64,000 bases of DNA from a virus, in IMG/VR virus record IMGVR_UViG_3300025769_000090, positions 11,240 to 75,239 of that record, one strand, 5' to 3'. The notes beneath the pieces are model-generated. The model had not been told where the DNA came from, ran no database searches, and worked only from the letters and a program-made list of their open reading frames with translations. The position numbers and the translations under genes were made by a program. Below are positions 45,973 through 51,437 of this stretch, piece after piece (the stretch's first letter is position 1; each line of letters begins with the position of its first letter).

Positions 45973-47997
45973 ATGGCAGATTGGAAAAAAGTATTAGTAT
46001 CGGGTTCCGATATACACATATCCTCGATAACGGCTTCTAATGTTCCTGAAGGCGCTTCAGGTGATAGAGTATTAGTCAGAACTACAGCTGATGGGGGATT
46101 CAAATCGGTTACCCAGGGCTCTATACAAGGAGTTACTGAAGCTACATTTCAAATCTCAGGTAGTGGCATTTTTGATACTGCTAGTTTTGATGGCACACAA
46201 GATGTTTTATTATTTACAGGAAGTGCCAATTCTGGATTATCAGTTGATGTATCAAAAGTTTCTGACCTTACAACAGTCACTGTAAACCTTCCCGAAGGTA
46301 CTATTAGTGGATCATCACAAATAACTTTATCAGAAACTAATGGGTTTACTACCTTTAGCCAATCATTAGCAACTGATATTAGTGGTAATTTAGGTAATAT
46401 TAATGCTGCCCTCGCCAGTATTACAGAATTAGAAAGTGAATTAGTAGATTTAAATGCTACTGCAAGTCTATTAATTGCCACATCTGAATCTGTAGCCAGT
46501 GATTTAAATGACCAATCACTTGATATCACTAACTTACAAAGTTCTATTGGTGCATTAGAAACCTTTTCATCTTCTGTAGTAGATGTTAGCCAAACAGGTA
46601 GTTTTGTAGTTTCTGCGTCTGTTTCAGGAACTCTTAATGAAATTGAACTTGAAGGTTTATCCAATTCAGGAATAAGAATAGGCCTTCCGGATAACGTCTC
46701 TATTCCTGGTATTTTAGAAGCACAGGCTATTGTCATTCAAGGTCAAGAACAAACCGAAACCGCAGCTGCTATAATATCAGGTAGTACATCATTTGGTACA
46801 TCTGGAACAAATAATACCCATAAATTTACGGGTTCATTAGAAATTACAGGCGGACTTAGTATAGATAATACTAACAATGATATTTCAATCAGTGAATTAA
46901 CTATAGACAATACAGTAGGAATATCAGACATAATTGCTAGATCAACTACAGACCAAACACTTCATACTGCAGGTACTGCTATAGGAACTGCTATCAGTGG
47001 AGCATTTAACGACTTATCTCAATCTTTTGCTCAAACTCTTACCGGTTTAACTACAACAACAACGACAACTAACGTAGCTGATATAACGGCGTTACAAGTT
47101 ACTAGTGAATCTTTAGTAAATAGCGCTTCCTTAGGTATTCGTCTTGAAGTTGATGGGGGTGGGGGTACAAGTATAAGTTTAGGTGAAACAGCTTCCTTTA
47201 CAGCCCAGAACACATTAAATGGACTTTCTGTTGATACAGTAGAACTATCTTCACCAACTAACGGGGTAAATATTAATTATATATTAAACCCTACAACTAT
47301 AGGTAATGCTATTGGAGCCTTCTCTGGATCACAACAATTACAAGATTTATTAGATGACGTTTACGTTCAACTTAGTGACATTCCTATTAGTGGTGCTCAA
47401 CAGTTAATTGATCTAGGTTTTATAACAGCAAGTAGCTTTACCGAATTATCAGATGTTCCTACGGGATTAATATCAGGTGTTGCTGCTAATTCAACGGGAG
47501 ATCAAGGTACTATTTTAATAAATGGTAATTCGGTTGCAATTAATAATTTAGGTACTGATGATAGTCCAACTTTCCAAAACTTAACAGTTACTAATAATTT
47601 AACTATTAATGGAGATTTAACTGCCCTCCAAGTAGATAATTTAAATATTGAAGATCAATTTATATTACTTAACAGTGGAGCAGGAGCAAATGAAAACGAT
47701 AAAGACGGTGGTATCATAGTAGATAATGGTGGAGGAAGTGGTTCTTTATTTATGTATGATTTTAACGCAAAAGCCTGGGGTTTTATAGGTGCTACTGATA
47801 ATAAAGTTCGTTTTGATGAAACATCTGATGCTGGTGGAGGTCAATCACCTGAAGTATATGTAGGTACTGTATCATCTTCTAATAACGGAATCGGATCAGG
47901 TCCTACAGATGCTCCTGCTTATGGATTAGATGCGTCAACCGCAAAAGGTCAAATTCATGTAAATACATCAGATAGTAGTATATGGATTTATGTTTAA
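45973..47997 (+). CDS. Fibre protein
   Basis: WKKVLVSGS start, coiled coil, THKFTGS, DQFILLNSG...DGGIIV C-terminal domain. Confidence 0.75.
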   Translation: MADWKKVLVSGSDIHISSITASNVPEGASGDRVLVRTTADGGFKSVTQGSIQGVTEATFQISGSGIFDTASFDGTQDVLLFTGSANSGLSVDVSKVSDLTTVTVNLPEGTISGSSQITLSETNGFTTFSQSLATDISGNLGNINAALASITELESELVDLNATASLLIATSESVASDLNDQSLDITNLQSSIGALETFSSSVVDVSQTGSFVVSASVSGTLNEIELEGLSNSGIRIGLPDNVSIPGILEAQAIVIQGQEQTETAAAIISGSTSFGTSGTNNTHKFTGSLEITGGLSIDNTNNDISISELTIDNTVGISDIIARSTTDQTLHTAGTAIGTAISGAFNDLSQSFAQTLTGLTTTTTTTNVADITALQVTSESLVNSASLGIRLEVDGGGGTSISLGETASFTAQNTLNGLSVDTVELSSPTNGVNINYILNPTTIGNAIGAFSGSQQLQDLLDDVYVQLSDIPISGAQQLIDLGFITASSFTELSDVPTGLISGVAANSTGDQGTILINGNSVAINNLGTDDSPTFQNLTVTNNLTINGDLTALQVDNLNIEDQFILLNSGAGANENDKDGGIIVDNGGGSGSLFMYDFNAKAWGFIGATDNKVRFDETSDAGGGQSPEVYVGTVSSSNNGIGSGPTDAPAYGLDASTAKGQIHVNTSDSSIWIYV

Positions 47998-48026: not shown

Positions 48027-50675
48027 ATGGCAGCGAATTTTCGTAAAATATTATTTTCTGGATCTAAAGTTGAAATAGCCCAAATTTCAGCTAGTAATAT
48101 ACCCGAAACTGCTTCATCTGCAGCTGAATTAGAGGTTTTAACTATTGACCCAAACACAGGTGAAGTTAGATTTATATCACAATCTGAACTACAAACCCCA
48201 AATGGAGATGTTACTTTTGGGATTAGTGGAAGTGATCTTACGGGTGTCCCATTTGATTCAAATGGTGAAAGATTATTAATTACAACTAACAATCCAGATT
48301 ACTTATCAACAAGTATTACTCCTGGGACTAATGCAGTTACTGCTAGCTTTAATATAGCAGATAATTTTATAACAGGATCTGGACAATTAAATGCTATTAA
48401 TTACAGTGTTAGCAGTTTTGGAATTGTTAGCCCAGCAGGTTCTCCTTCTGATTTTAGAACAGCTTTTCACACCCCCATTGTAGGTCATTCTGCATTTGGG
48501 TTTGGAAACCCCCAAGTAGGGTCTATTTTACATAATACAAACGCTATACAAGAGATCACTACTAACCCCACAGTGGTCACTTTAACTGATGGAATACTTA
48601 GTAAAGTAATTAATGATGGTCCTTATACAGCTAGTATTCAAAACCTTTGGTTTAATCCTCTTTCAACTACAGATTCAACACCGGTATCAAATGCTTCAAT
48701 TAGCAATTTAAACCCTGATACACTCACCGCCAATAGAGATAACTATGCATGGTTATCAGCAAGTTTAATAGGTGGATTTACACAAGGTGGTGTTCCATCA
48801 CTTTCAGCATCATTTGTAGCATTTACTTCAAGTCTTGCTACTAATTCATCATCTATAGGCATTCTTCAAGGAAGTTCTAGCAATATTACTGGTACTACTA
48901 GTAGTATGGCTTTAAATGAATTTACTTCTAGTTTTTTAAGAGTACTTAAACCTAAAAGAATTTTATCATCCTTCCACAACGCTAACATAAGTCAAGTTAC
49001 AATTGTTGATGAAACTAGCAATGATGGTACAGATCCAGATGTTTTACCCCAAGGAAGAATCCTCCAAATAGGAGGTACAGTACCCGCAACAAGCCCTCTA
49101 GGTAATTTCCTCCCAGATGCCAGACACCTTACAATTTCGGGAACATTTACTGCTAATGATTTAATATTAAATGCTAATGGTATTATTTTAGAGCAAATGG
49201 ATGTTGCTTCTTTTTCTGGCAGCATTAATTATGGTACTAGCAGTCTTCATACTCATAGATTTATAGGAAATACATTTATAACTGGTGGTGGGGTAAGTGT
49301 AACAGGCCCGCTTTCTATACAAGCTTCTCTTCCTTTAGAAGATGATGTAACATTAGATAATCCAGTACAAATTTTAGTAAGGTCTGGATCTAATAATATT
49401 CTTAGAGCTACTACAATAAACAGCGCTAATAGTATTATAGATAATGAAATAAGGTCTACAGCTACTATAACTTCATTGTCGTTTGAAGACCGCGTCGAAA
49501 CCATTCAAGATAATATTGATTTAGCCCCAGGTCAGGCATCTAGTATCCACCTGTTACAATCTGGTTCTAATGATTTAACCGGTTCTTATTCGCGAGGGAT
49601 ATTTTTTAGTACTGCCTCTAACCAAGCTAGTAGTCTTATAGAGAACAGTGATGGATCTACATTAGGTTTTGTCACTCACACAGCTTCATTTAGTGCTAGT
49701 ATTGCTATAGGACCAAACACCGACCACACAGTTGATACTAATATATTTACAGTTTCCCATTCTTTAGCAAATAATATATCATCTATACAGTATATTTTTA
49801 ATACGTCATCGTTTATAAGTGCTACAAATATTATTACTGCTAGTCAATTTATTACTGACACTATTAATGATTTAGATAGATATGGAAAGCAAGTAAGTTT
49901 AATATTAACCCAAAGCAATACTGCAGGTAATATATTATATATAGCTGATTTAGCTACTAATTTAACTGATGGAACAGGAAAACATTTCTTAACAGGAGCA
50001 GGATCATTTAATAGTCTTTTAGACGTTACAGATGTTTCTGTAAATGAACTCATATTTAACCAATTTACTACGACGGACCAAGGTAGTATTGTTTTTGATT
50101 TAAGCCCTGATCCAAGTAATTTTGTTCCAGGCAATGTTGCAGTGTCCTTTAAAGACTTGCAAAATACTAATTCTCCACAATTTACTAATTTAACAATAGG
50201 TACAGATCCTGTTACTGACCCTGGTAATTTAACAGTTAATGGTTCCCTTGTTAAAATTAATAAAAGTAATCTTAATATTAAAGACCAATTTATATTAATT
50301 AATAGTGGTACACTTCCTGGAACTTTTGTAAATATAGACAATGACCCTGATGGTGGTATTATAGTAGGAAACGGAAATAACAGTGGTTCTATGTTTATGT
50401 TTGATAATACACATAATCGATGGGGCTTTATAGGAGCAGACGGTAATAATTTACAAGCTTTAGATGTTGAGTCTAACGAGGATAATACTTTAACCCCAAA
50501 ACTTGGAGTTAGAGTAACAGTTTTCAACACAGAAAAATTTAATGCTGATGGAACCCCTATAGATATTAATGAATTTGAATATGGTAATAGTGATCAAAAC
50601 ACTCAACTAGGTATAATGGCTGTATGTAATGATGTAACTAAAAACCCTGATAGAGATGTGTATATATACGCTTAA
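48027..50675 (+). CDS. Fibre protein, paralog of 45973-47997
   Basis: FRKILFSGS start, THRFIG, DQFILINSG...DGGIIV. Confidence 0.75.
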   Translation: MAANFRKILFSGSKVEIAQISASNIPETASSAAELEVLTIDPNTGEVRFISQSELQTPNGDVTFGISGSDLTGVPFDSNGERLLITTNNPDYLSTSITPGTNAVTASFNIADNFITGSGQLNAINYSVSSFGIVSPAGSPSDFRTAFHTPIVGHSAFGFGNPQVGSILHNTNAIQEITTNPTVVTLTDGILSKVINDGPYTASIQNLWFNPLSTTDSTPVSNASISNLNPDTLTANRDNYAWLSASLIGGFTQGGVPSLSASFVAFTSSLATNSSSIGILQGSSSNITGTTSSMALNEFTSSFLRVLKPKRILSSFHNANISQVTIVDETSNDGTDPDVLPQGRILQIGGTVPATSPLGNFLPDARHLTISGTFTANDLILNANGIILEQMDVASFSGSINYGTSSLHTHRFIGNTFITGGGVSVTGPLSIQASLPLEDDVTLDNPVQILVRSGSNNILRATTINSANSIIDNEIRSTATITSLSFEDRVETIQDNIDLAPGQASSIHLLQSGSNDLTGSYSRGIFFSTASNQASSLIENSDGSTLGFVTHTASFSASIAIGPNTDHTVDTNIFTVSHSLANNISSIQYIFNTSSFISATNIITASQFITDTINDLDRYGKQVSLILTQSNTAGNILYIADLATNLTDGTGKHFLTGAGSFNSLLDVTDVSVNELIFNQFTTTDQGSIVFDLSPDPSNFVPGNVAVSFKDLQNTNSPQFTNLTIGTDPVTDPGNLTVNGSLVKINKSNLNIKDQFILINSGTLPGTFVNIDNDPDGGIIVGNGNNSGSMFMFDNTHNRWGFIGADGNNLQALDVESNEDNTLTPKLGVRVTVFNTEKFNADGTPIDINEFEYGNSDQNTQLGIMAVCNDVTKNPDRDVYIYA

Positions 50676-50693
50676 AGCAAATTAATAAAAATT

Positions 50694-50720
50694 AAGCATC
50701 TATTTGGGTGCTTTTTTTTT
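50694..50720 (+). terminator. Intrinsic terminator
   Basis: AAGCATCT-attt-GGGTGCTT (with G-U pairs) followed by a T run. Confidence 0.7.
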
Positions 50721-50755
50721 ATTTACTACAATAATAAAAACTAAAATTAATAATA

Positions 50756-50911
50756 ATGTTGCAAATTAAATTAACCCCTCAAGAAATTCAAGTTAGTATA
50801 GCTGCTATTAACAATATCCAAATTACTGGTAAAGATGCTCATACAGTATCTGATCTATTAAGAAAATATGAAAATACTTTAGCTAATTTTAAACCAGTTA
50901 AAGCCGGATAA
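50756..50911 (+). CDS. 51-aa protein, paralog of 44417-44644 (absent from the ORF track)
   Basis: MLQIKLTPQEIQVSIAAINNIQITGKDAHTVSDLLRKYENTLANFKPVKAG*. Confidence 0.75.
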   Translation: MLQIKLTPQEIQVSIAAINNIQITGKDAHTVSDLLRKYENTLANFKPVKAG

Positions 50912-50918
50912 TATTTAT
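50912..50918 (+). promoter_or_regulatory. Putative late promoter TATTTAT
   Basis: Directly upstream of the structured leader. Confidence 0.55.
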
Positions 50919-50925
50919 TATCAGT

Positions 50926-50982
50926 CTATTATTGGCCCGAAAGGGAAGTAGGCAGCAATAGTGCTGTATCTAACCGTAGTAG
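50926..50982 (+). ncRNA. Candidate three-way-junction cis-regulatory RNA
   Basis: P1 CUAUUAUUGG/CCGUAGUAG, P2 CCC-GAAA-GGG, P3 UAGGCAGCA-AUAG-UGCUG(UA)UCUA; GC-rich island in an AT-rich spacer. Confidence 0.55.
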
Positions 50983-50993
50983 TAAAATAAAAT

Positions 50994-51437
50994 ATGCCAA
51001 ACTGGAAAAAAGTCATTGTATCCGGCAGTAATGCCGTATTAAATAACGTAACAGCTAGTGGGGATATTTCGGCTAGTGGAAATATTTTTACAACTGATAT
51101 CTCAGCTAGAGGAAACATTTCTACAACTACTATTTCAACGTTAGAATCTGGTCCTCTTGGAACCGATGCCCCTACTCGGGTAGATTTATATAATACTTCG
51201 CAATATACTGGCGCTATATACGATTATATCCTAGTAGACAGTACCGTCGGTGCCCGTACAGGGCAATTCATGGTAGTGCACGATAATGGCCTACTTACAT
51301 TTACAGATACTTCTACTAAACATTTATCTGACAATATAGTCCCTGAAATTTCAGCATCGTTTAGTTCTACAGATGTTGAAATATATATCGTAAATGGTGA
51401 TGGATATACGTTTAAATCATTTACTAAAAAGTTATAA
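50994..51437 (+). CDS. Short fibre-associated protein
   Basis: MPNWKKVIVSGS start shared with 45973 and 48027; VTASGDISASG. Confidence 0.75.
   Translation: MPNWKKVIVSGSNAVLNNVTASGDISASGNIFTTDISARGNISTTTISTLESGPLGTDAPTRVDLYNTSQYTGAIYDYILVDSTVGARTGQFMVVHDNGLLTFTDTSTKHLSDNIVPEISASFSSTDVEIYIVNGDGYTFKSFTKKL

Follow-up and report, generated by a model that had tools for sequence, protein, structure and literature searches.

Genes around the leader RNA and its fold

We have analysed a 64,000-nucleotide stretch of DNA, hereafter the window, which is part of a 75-kb phage record from IMG/VR (IMGVR_UViG_3300025769_000090) with an estimated completeness of about 50%. Every gene of the window lies on the plus strand, and a block of fibre-like and LamG-lectin genes comes after those for terminase, portal, major head and adaptor proteins. 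A terminator-like hairpin 3' of an 882-aa fibre-like gene marks a boundary after which a new transcription unit begins (Table 1). This unit contains a small ORF and a 147-aa fibre-like gene, which are separated by a spacer of 82 nt, and the element studied here sits in that spacer. Two LamG-lectin genes and a 1542-aa fibre gene lie 3' of the 147-aa gene. A tRNA search gave no match at the element.

Table 1. Features at and around the leader RNA, in window coordinates
Feature	Position	Strand	Remarks
Terminator-like hairpin with T-run	50694..50713	+	3' of the 882-aa fibre-like gene, 5' of the small ORF
Small ORF, 51 aa (P0002)	50756..50911	+	Member of a two-helix family of 49-85 aa
ATATTTAT box, candidate promoter element	50911..50918	+	Strand bias and spacing to ATGs
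P1 5' strand: CUAUUAU, bulged U50933, then GG	50926..50935	+	RNAfold, alignment, RNAalifold, covariance model
P2 hairpin, CCC-GAAA-GGG	50936..50945	+	Stacked on P1 with zero linker
J2/3, AAG	50946..50948	+	Same in all copies, including 37 recovered by protein alone
P3	50949..50972	+	U-A, R-Y and G-C pairs, conserved UA(N) bulge, variable hairpin
J3/1, one A	50973..50973	+	Invariant
P1 3' strand: CC, then GUAGUAG	50974..50982	+	Fold and alignment
A/U-rich single-stranded spacer, 11 nt	50983..50993	+	From the end of P1 to the ATG at 50994
Fibre-like gene, 147 aa, starting MPNWKKVIVSGS	50994..51437	+	N-terminal module common to fibre-like proteins

The element, at 50926-50984 on the plus strand, was folded by RNAfold into a 57-nt three-way junction of the helices P1, P2 and P3. 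This reproduces the junction drawn in an earlier note on this DNA, namely P1, a P2 hairpin with a GNRA loop, an AAG junction and P3. In P1, positions 50926-50932 pair with 50976-50982 and G50934-G50935 with C50974-C50975, and P3 of the window consists of U-A, A-U and G-C pairs, a 2-nt bulge and a 6-bp hairpin. The same note had placed the end of the element 11 nt 5' of the ATG and had set aside a terminator. Both statements hold, in that P1 ends at 50982 ahead of the ATG at 50994, and P1 is followed by an A-rich spacer in which a U-tract is absent. At the element there is no GC-rich hairpin with a U-tract of the kind that characterises an intrinsic terminator or attenuator, and the nearest terminator-like site is the hairpin at 50694-50713.

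In terms of fold energy alone, the element does not rise above chance, with z-scores of -1.43 and -1.90 and with 18 and 8 of 200 shuffles reaching as good a fold. For the predicted fold, the evidence exceeding chance is comparative and does not come from single-sequence folding. An alternative register of P1, in which UUGG would pair with CCAA, was dropped because neither the covarying outer helix nor the R41-Y76 pair is compatible with it.

Conservation and covariation across phages

The junction RNA is a conserved structure on the sense strand, and it occupies a consistent position in the leader of one kind of fibre gene, to which it is exclusively linked. Its core pattern (GGAAGTRGRC, 4-34 nt, GTANCYAACC) was run as a DNA pattern on IMG/VR. 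The pattern matched once in the window, not at all in 100 shuffles of the window, and in at least 119 further IMG/VR stretches. After four chance matches had been discarded, 129 instances remained among the matches listed, corresponding to 123 distinct element sequences. The element is thus present in at least 123 distinct IMG/VR phage sequences, 12-24 nt 5' of the starts of genes whose products begin MP[NS]WKK..SGS; (A/G)UG followed by P[NS]W codons was found 12-24 nt 3' of the element in 108 of the 123 distinct sequences.

The earlier note had named a lack of conservation or covariation as an outcome that would speak against it; this outcome did not occur, and both are strong. A protein search of IMG/VR with the 147-aa product gave 377 relatives, mostly aligned over their first 25-45 residues, and 80 loci were kept. 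In this protein-chosen sample the element lies 5' of every MP.WKK start. The strict RNA pattern was found at 36 of the 37 distinct MP.WKK starts, and at all 37 when one mismatch was allowed. Because the sample was picked by protein, the conservation of the RNA at these 37 starts is unbiased. At the same loci, none of the 23 MA.WKK paralog starts has the element.

Fibre-like paralogs starting with MA(D/N/E/T)WKK or MAANFRK are found in the window at 45973 and 48027 and in other stretches, such as at L008:1574 and L029:1334. These paralogs have the same N-terminal module and often the ATATTTAT box, and never the junction RNA. Between the MP.WKK and MA.WKK genes, a proline at codon 2 accompanies the presence of the RNA.

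For the analysis of covariation, 80 diverse copies were aligned with MAFFT without structural fitting (alignment A1). On this alignment, 91.2% of the cells at paired positions were paired against 76.2% after shuffling, 246 cells showed double changes against 87, and the covariation score was 0.446 against 0.174; in each of the three comparisons, 0 of 500 shuffles reached the observed value. Controls in which the structure was slid along the alignment were 30-48% paired. Covariation is present in all three helices. The P3 hairpin positions show all four Watson-Crick pair types, and at P1 position 7-82 there are 51 copies with A-U and 23 with G-C. For the R41-Y76 pair next to the junction, the search pattern permitted all four combinations; 63 copies have G-C, 17 have A-U and none is mismatched. 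RNAalifold independently recovered the same junction and added an invariant U-A pair and a G/A-U pair that lengthen P3. The covariation support is on par with that of many published motif candidates. Since G-U pairs are frequent, with 37 U-G pairs at one P1 position, the folded strand is the sense strand.

A covariance model (R1) was built from 80 diverse copies, the window sequence being part of the seed, and it gave one match in the window, at 63.6 bits. With this model, 97 of 100 phage loci, the window included, were matched exactly once each, at 47-71 bits. Exactly one match was also obtained in each of five genome records, two of which are about 160 kb long and near-complete. The carriers of the element represented by long records are about 100-170 kb in size.

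The element is accompanied by a small protein gene. Matches to the family HMM lie within 450 nt upstream of the element in 123 of 129 instances, and two of the six instances without such a match are on truncated contigs. The family comprises proteins of 49-85 aa with a two-helix core, which are 7-57% identical to the window member and which have 18% mean column identity in alignment A3. The AF2 model of the small protein is a helical hairpin (pLDDT 85). Searches of PHROGs, PDB profiles, the ESM Atlas and Foldseek gave no informative match, and an RNA-binding fold is not recognisable in the hairpin. The conserved unit thus has three parts, namely the gene of the small protein, the junction RNA and, in the fibre gene, the N-terminal MP.WKK module. 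The small protein may be the partner of the RNA or a chaperone of the fibre, or its position may reflect no more than synteny.

In the RNA, some 20 nucleotides of the junction hardly vary. The nearly invariant features are the GG/CC at the base of P1, the CC/GG at the base of P2, the AAG, the U-A, R-Y and G-C pairs and the UA(N) bulge of P3, and the A of J3/1. A one-nucleotide bulge in the 5' strand of P1 is also nearly invariant, with a variable base identity. Considering that the junction bases have stayed invariant while the adjacent protein has diverged, selection acts on the RNA itself.

One cultured phage carries the element. In Flavobacterium phage vB_FspM_immuto, whose host is Flavobacterium sp. 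LMO8 from the Baltic Sea, the score of the covariance model is 59.8 bits for the sense strand, compared with 4.6 bits for the antisense strand. Here, around 137,850-138,000 of MW353175, the element lies between a gene for a hypothetical small protein, immuto26A_218, and a gene annotated as a 'putative tail fiber-like protein' whose product starts MPSWKK. The otherwise invariant GG/CC of P1 is replaced by GA/UC in immuto, which is a compensatory change outside the search pattern. No other cultured lineage was detected when 50,697 phage records were searched with short queries; BLAST searches of cultured phages with the 5-kb region and with the protein gave zero matches. A link to a phage-encoded ribosomal protein S21 was dropped, as this gene was present in only one of five genomes.

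In contigs of GTDB genomes, the core pattern returned 120 stretches, almost all of them chance or coding matches. The only real copies are L289 and L318, both of which look like phage contigs, so that the support for a host range is confined to Flavobacterium. L289 (NZIO01000021.1) is a 15-kb contig in a Candidatus Pelagibacter MAG bin with a class II copy 5' of an MPNWKK start, and is probably of phage origin and wrongly assigned to this bin because of its composition. In many Bacteroidota genomes, core-pattern matches fall in a conserved stretch that codes for protein (approximately ...DFSQVEVD.QVTNL.RFE.FFPE...) and that is unrelated to the RNA (L214, L236, L240, L245, L256, L258, L264, L272, L284, L301 and L316), which calls for caution in searching by pattern alone.

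A conserved look-alike leader with the core GGAGAG..CUUCC-N4-GGAAGUAGGCAC-N6-GUGCGUAAC(C/U)AACC was seen in actinobacteria (Streptomyces, Streptacidiphilus, Rhodococcus and Actinoplanes; at L205:1040-1110 and in L220, L282, L304, L306, L307 and L309). An Rfam search with this leader gave no match. It breaks the R41-Y76 pairing rule and pairs differently, and was therefore treated as unrelated. The gene 3' of it has a product whose N-terminus, we presume, resembles an HxlR-type regulator.

Classes of the RNA and their position at the start codon

The copies fall into three classes. Class III, to which the window belongs, has two short arms and comprises 75 distinct sequences. Class I (25 distinct sequences) has a long P3 with a conserved GGCAUAA loop, and class II (23 distinct sequences) has a long P2 with a (U)UGGC(A/G) loop. 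GNRA loops close 52 of 90 short P2 arms. The junction occurs in discrete variants, in which a G-C pair goes with G.A, an A-U pair with G.U, or a G-C pair with A.G.

Among 108 relatives, the spacer between P1 and the AUG is 8-13 nt long, with a mode of 11 and a mean A content of 0.56. A sequence resembling a Shine-Dalgarno (SD) site is found in 40 of these 108 copies, and the 3' strand of P1 overlaps it in 27 of the 40. All 23 class II sequences have an SD, which is paired within P1; they lack the ATATTTAT box, and their P1 begins at most 3 nt from the upstream stop codon. The class III copies (75 of 123 distinct sequences) have neither an SD nor a loop complementary to the start region, and their AUG lies in an open A/U-rich spacer.

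The loops of the long arms are complementary to the start-codon region, GGCAUA to UAUGCC and UUGGCA/G to UGCCAA. Of 107 copies, 36 have a loop complementarity of at least 5 nt to positions -6 to +12, and 8 have it to a control region; this signal was noticed post hoc and represents two or three independent lineages. As these anti-start loops are carried on different arms, a flexible downstream pairing target would fit better than a fixed tertiary contact. A conserved alternative helix that would compete with P1 was not found among the copies, and neither was a terminator.

The geometry of the ATATTTAT box and the ATG places the junction RNA in a leader. In the window, the box occurs at 23 sites, including 3970, 13278, 29152, 32607, 34502, 39493, 40209 and 52994. 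The total count does not exceed chance (23 against 17 expected in the window), and 21 of the 23 sites are on the plus strand. The box lies 20-46 nt 5' of many window ATGs but 83 nt before the ATG at 50994, a distance that is explained by the extra length of the junction. In the box-bearing relatives other than class II, it ends 3-13 nt before P1. Judging from this strand bias and spacing, the box is probably a phage promoter element; as such, it would start the transcript a few nucleotides before P1.

Possible role of the leader RNA and competing explanations

The earlier note had put forward a possibly undescribed cis-regulatory RNA, on the grounds that no riboswitch or ribozyme consensus was recognised, and had pointed out that a match to a known family would remove the novelty. 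Such a match did not appear. The whole window gave zero matches to Rfam 15 (4227 models) at gathering score, and searches at E<=10 with three representatives (window 50650-51100, L080 and L090) gave nothing relevant. The riboswitch and ribozyme models of Rfam were unmatched, and the hammerhead core is absent. The sole family among the weak matches that Rfam types as cis-regulatory was the freshwater-2 RNA (RF02980). It was met in one class II copy only, with a score of 13.2 bits where the gathering score is 49.9 (E=6.1), and the alignment is limited to the AAGGAG...AUG stretch and the helices do not correspond, so that we treat it as unrelated.

A literature search that covered the core strings, the N-terminal peptide and RNA motifs of tail-fibre genes gave no earlier description. 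According to its main text, the bulk IMG/VR catalogue of Fremin et al. 2023 comprises 10,006 unnamed candidate structured RNAs, 8495 of the candidate motifs being from IMG/VR (PMC10690425). In that main text only GP20- and GP32-linked candidates are discussed as cis-regulatory, tail-fibre genes are not discussed, and the word 'tail' is absent (PMC10690425). The GP20 and GP32 leader candidates described there are like the junction RNA in their IMG/VR source, in their covariation, and in lying at most 25 nt 5' of a start codon (PMC10690425). Relative to the main text of this catalogue, we rate the junction RNA as a new RNA family among the cis-regulatory leader RNAs. The conservation, the covariation and the absent Rfam match support the suggestion of a cis-regulatory RNA in the leader of the fibre gene, and from its position and anatomy we infer that it would be regulatory.

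Two groups of known leader RNAs invite comparison. The first consists of translational riboswitch aptamers with a three-way junction or with a P1 that overlaps the ribosome-binding site, such as the purine riboswitch and those of the SAM-II/preQ1 type. On the one hand, the junction RNA shares with these a compact 5' leader, a conserved junction, covarying helices, a P1 beside or over the ribosome-binding site and the absence of a terminator, and it has the conserved, covarying, aptamer-like structure in a 5' leader that is expected of a riboswitch. On the other hand, there is no similarity in sequence or model, the target is a virion fibre and not a metabolic or transport gene, and a conserved alternative pairing was not found.

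The second group consists of protein-bound translational operators of phages, namely the T4 gene 32 leader pseudoknot, the T4 RegA sites and the MS2 coat-protein operator hairpin. Like these, the junction RNA is a cis-acting RNA at the start of a phage gene and could let a phage protein set translation. As in such operators, it lies at or overlaps the ribosome-binding region, with a spacer of 8-13 nt and the SD overlap described above, and a dedicated small protein gene adjoins it (123/129). It differs from them in being larger, with three helices and about 20 invariant bases, and its protein partner is only a candidate.

Our preferred reading, to which we give about an even chance, is that the junction is a phage-specific, cis-acting leader RNA that gates translation initiation of one tail-fibre gene, the MP[NS]WKK paralog. 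The RNA would be co-transcribed with this gene. The 3' strand of P1 ends about 11 nt 5' of the AUG, at the place expected for the 30S platform or a Shine-Dalgarno helix, so that the folded junction would limit ribosome loading. An effector would bind to the invariant junction nucleotides and thereby favour either the folded or the open state. We consider that a protein effector is somewhat more likely than a metabolite; the upstream two-helix protein and the unassembled N-terminal domain of the fibre would be candidates. The folded state may either repress or help initiation.

Several observations argue for this gate. Control of translation and not of termination is suggested by the short and fixed distance to the AUG, the overlap with the SD, the anti-start loops and the absence of a terminator. 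The exclusive tie to one paralog and the single copy per genome point to an element that would act in cis on initiation. Since the unpaired junction bases are invariant, specific recognition by a protein or a small ligand seems indicated, and not a mere stabilising hairpin. Promoter use, the translational level, the direction of control and the effector are what we infer from these observations.

Against the gate, occlusion in class III, the class of the window, would rest on steric effects alone, and the anti-start loops were observed post hoc in two or three independent lineages. The small upstream protein, as modelled, appears to have no recognisable RNA-binding fold, and its adjacency to the RNA could be explained by conserved gene order alone. 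In addition, the classes differ in architecture, with P1 being either promoter-proximal or starting at the upstream stop codon, and one mechanism may not cover all of them.

To our knowledge, very little is known about how phages control the dosage of individual receptor-binding proteins, and we know of few cases in which cis-regulatory RNAs have been linked to virion genes. Among the several paralogous fibre genes, only one has the junction RNA. The phages with this RNA form a widespread aquatic group, each genome has a single copy, and a dedicated small protein accompanies it. Because the cultured pair of vB_FspM_immuto and Flavobacterium sp. LMO8 has the element, its function is directly testable. 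Bacteroidota largely lack initiation led by a Shine-Dalgarno sequence; for this reason, a structured leader that takes the SD position could give insight into the tuning of translation in these bacteria.

A small-molecule riboswitch, in which a metabolite or signalling nucleotide would stabilise P1 and set translation of the fibre gene, is in our view unlikely, and SAM or nucleotides as the ligand, which the earlier note had proposed for probing, are pure guesses. The size of 55-70 nt is that of an aptamer, about 20 near-invariant junction nucleotides stand amid covarying helices, and the discrete junction variants also speak for this explanation. The P1 is weak and AU-rich with a conserved bulge, and it abuts or overlaps the ribosome-binding region, which is the usual layout of a translational riboswitch. 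However, the target is a structural protein of the virion, for which a metabolic logic is lacking, a conserved anti-P1 pairing is absent, there is zero resemblance to the Rfam riboswitches even at E<=10, and the dedicated adjacent protein gene would provide a simpler effector. That the junction is a new aptamer class controlling a phage receptor-binding protein is, by the same measure, a minor prospect. If this were true, it would be the first riboswitch known for a phage receptor-binding protein, a new class with an unusual target, and it could enable a large Flavobacterium phage to choose the fibre for its virions in response to a host metabolite or signalling nucleotide.

We consider it rather improbable that the fold is a switch-free stabiliser or processing barrier, which at the 5' end of the mRNA, either from the start or as a remnant of cleavage, would block 5'-dependent decay and so increase the output of fibre protein. 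In the copies that have the presumed promoter box, only 3-13 nt separate its end from P1, which would put P1 at the 5' end of the transcript, and the AUG region is open in the class of the window. However, any stable helix would suffice for this purpose, and the invariant unpaired bases, the bulges and the distance of 8-13 nt to the AUG are left unexplained; moreover, the class II copies have no box and start at the upstream stop codon.

The class II copies lend themselves to translational coupling, since all 23 of them have a P1 that begins no more than 3 nt from the upstream stop and takes up the SD in its pairing, and all lack the box; a small ORF is found in 123 of 129 instances. Here the junction would bring the stop of the small ORF close to the start of the fibre gene, or would hide the SD until P1 is melted by ribosomes completing the small ORF, and would fix the ratio of the two proteins. 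This explanation has only a small chance of being correct, because most copies, including that of the window, have the stop 12-25 nt or more from P1 with the promoter-like box in between, and because simple coupling hairpins have no need of a conserved junction core.

Even less credit goes to a self-cleaving ribozyme or specific RNase site that would separate the fibre message from the upstream RNA. Small ribozymes are common in phage DNA, and a three-way junction with a conserved core and a possible contact between the tips of P2 and P3 (a GNRA loop on the short arm and an extended other arm) recalls the hammerhead architecture. However, the hammerhead core (CUGANGA, GAAA) is absent from the sequence, and the Rfam ribozyme families, which include hammerhead, twister, twister-sister, pistol, hatchet and HDV-like ribozymes, were unmatched even at E<=10. 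The strict placement at one gene and at a fixed distance is typical of regulators and not of ribozymes.

A DNA-level element, whether a recombination linker of fibre modules, a homing-endonuclease target or a protein-binding operator, is scarcely credible. In its favour, conservation extends from the leader over the first ~10 codons, the remaining protein being modular, and the homing endonuclease genes of L088 and L149 have their insertion point precisely between the element and the fibre ORF. However, compensatory changes preserve the pairing and G-U pairs work on one strand only, which contradicts this explanation, and the helix sequences vary freely if paired, unlike in DNA sequence recognition.

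The two inserted genes, at L088:1553-1795 and L149:10525-11247 on the minus strand, separate the junction RNA from the body of the fibre ORF. One encodes an HNH endonuclease (PF01844) and the other a NUMOD1/GIY-YIG-like endonuclease, and the endonuclease ORF in L088 makes use of the ATG-CCA-AAT codons of the fibre gene. In three contigs (L097, L173 and L192), an insert of about 100-130 nt lies between the junction and the MPNWKK or VPNWKK start, and part of the insert in L097 and L173 is complementary to the 3' strand of P1.
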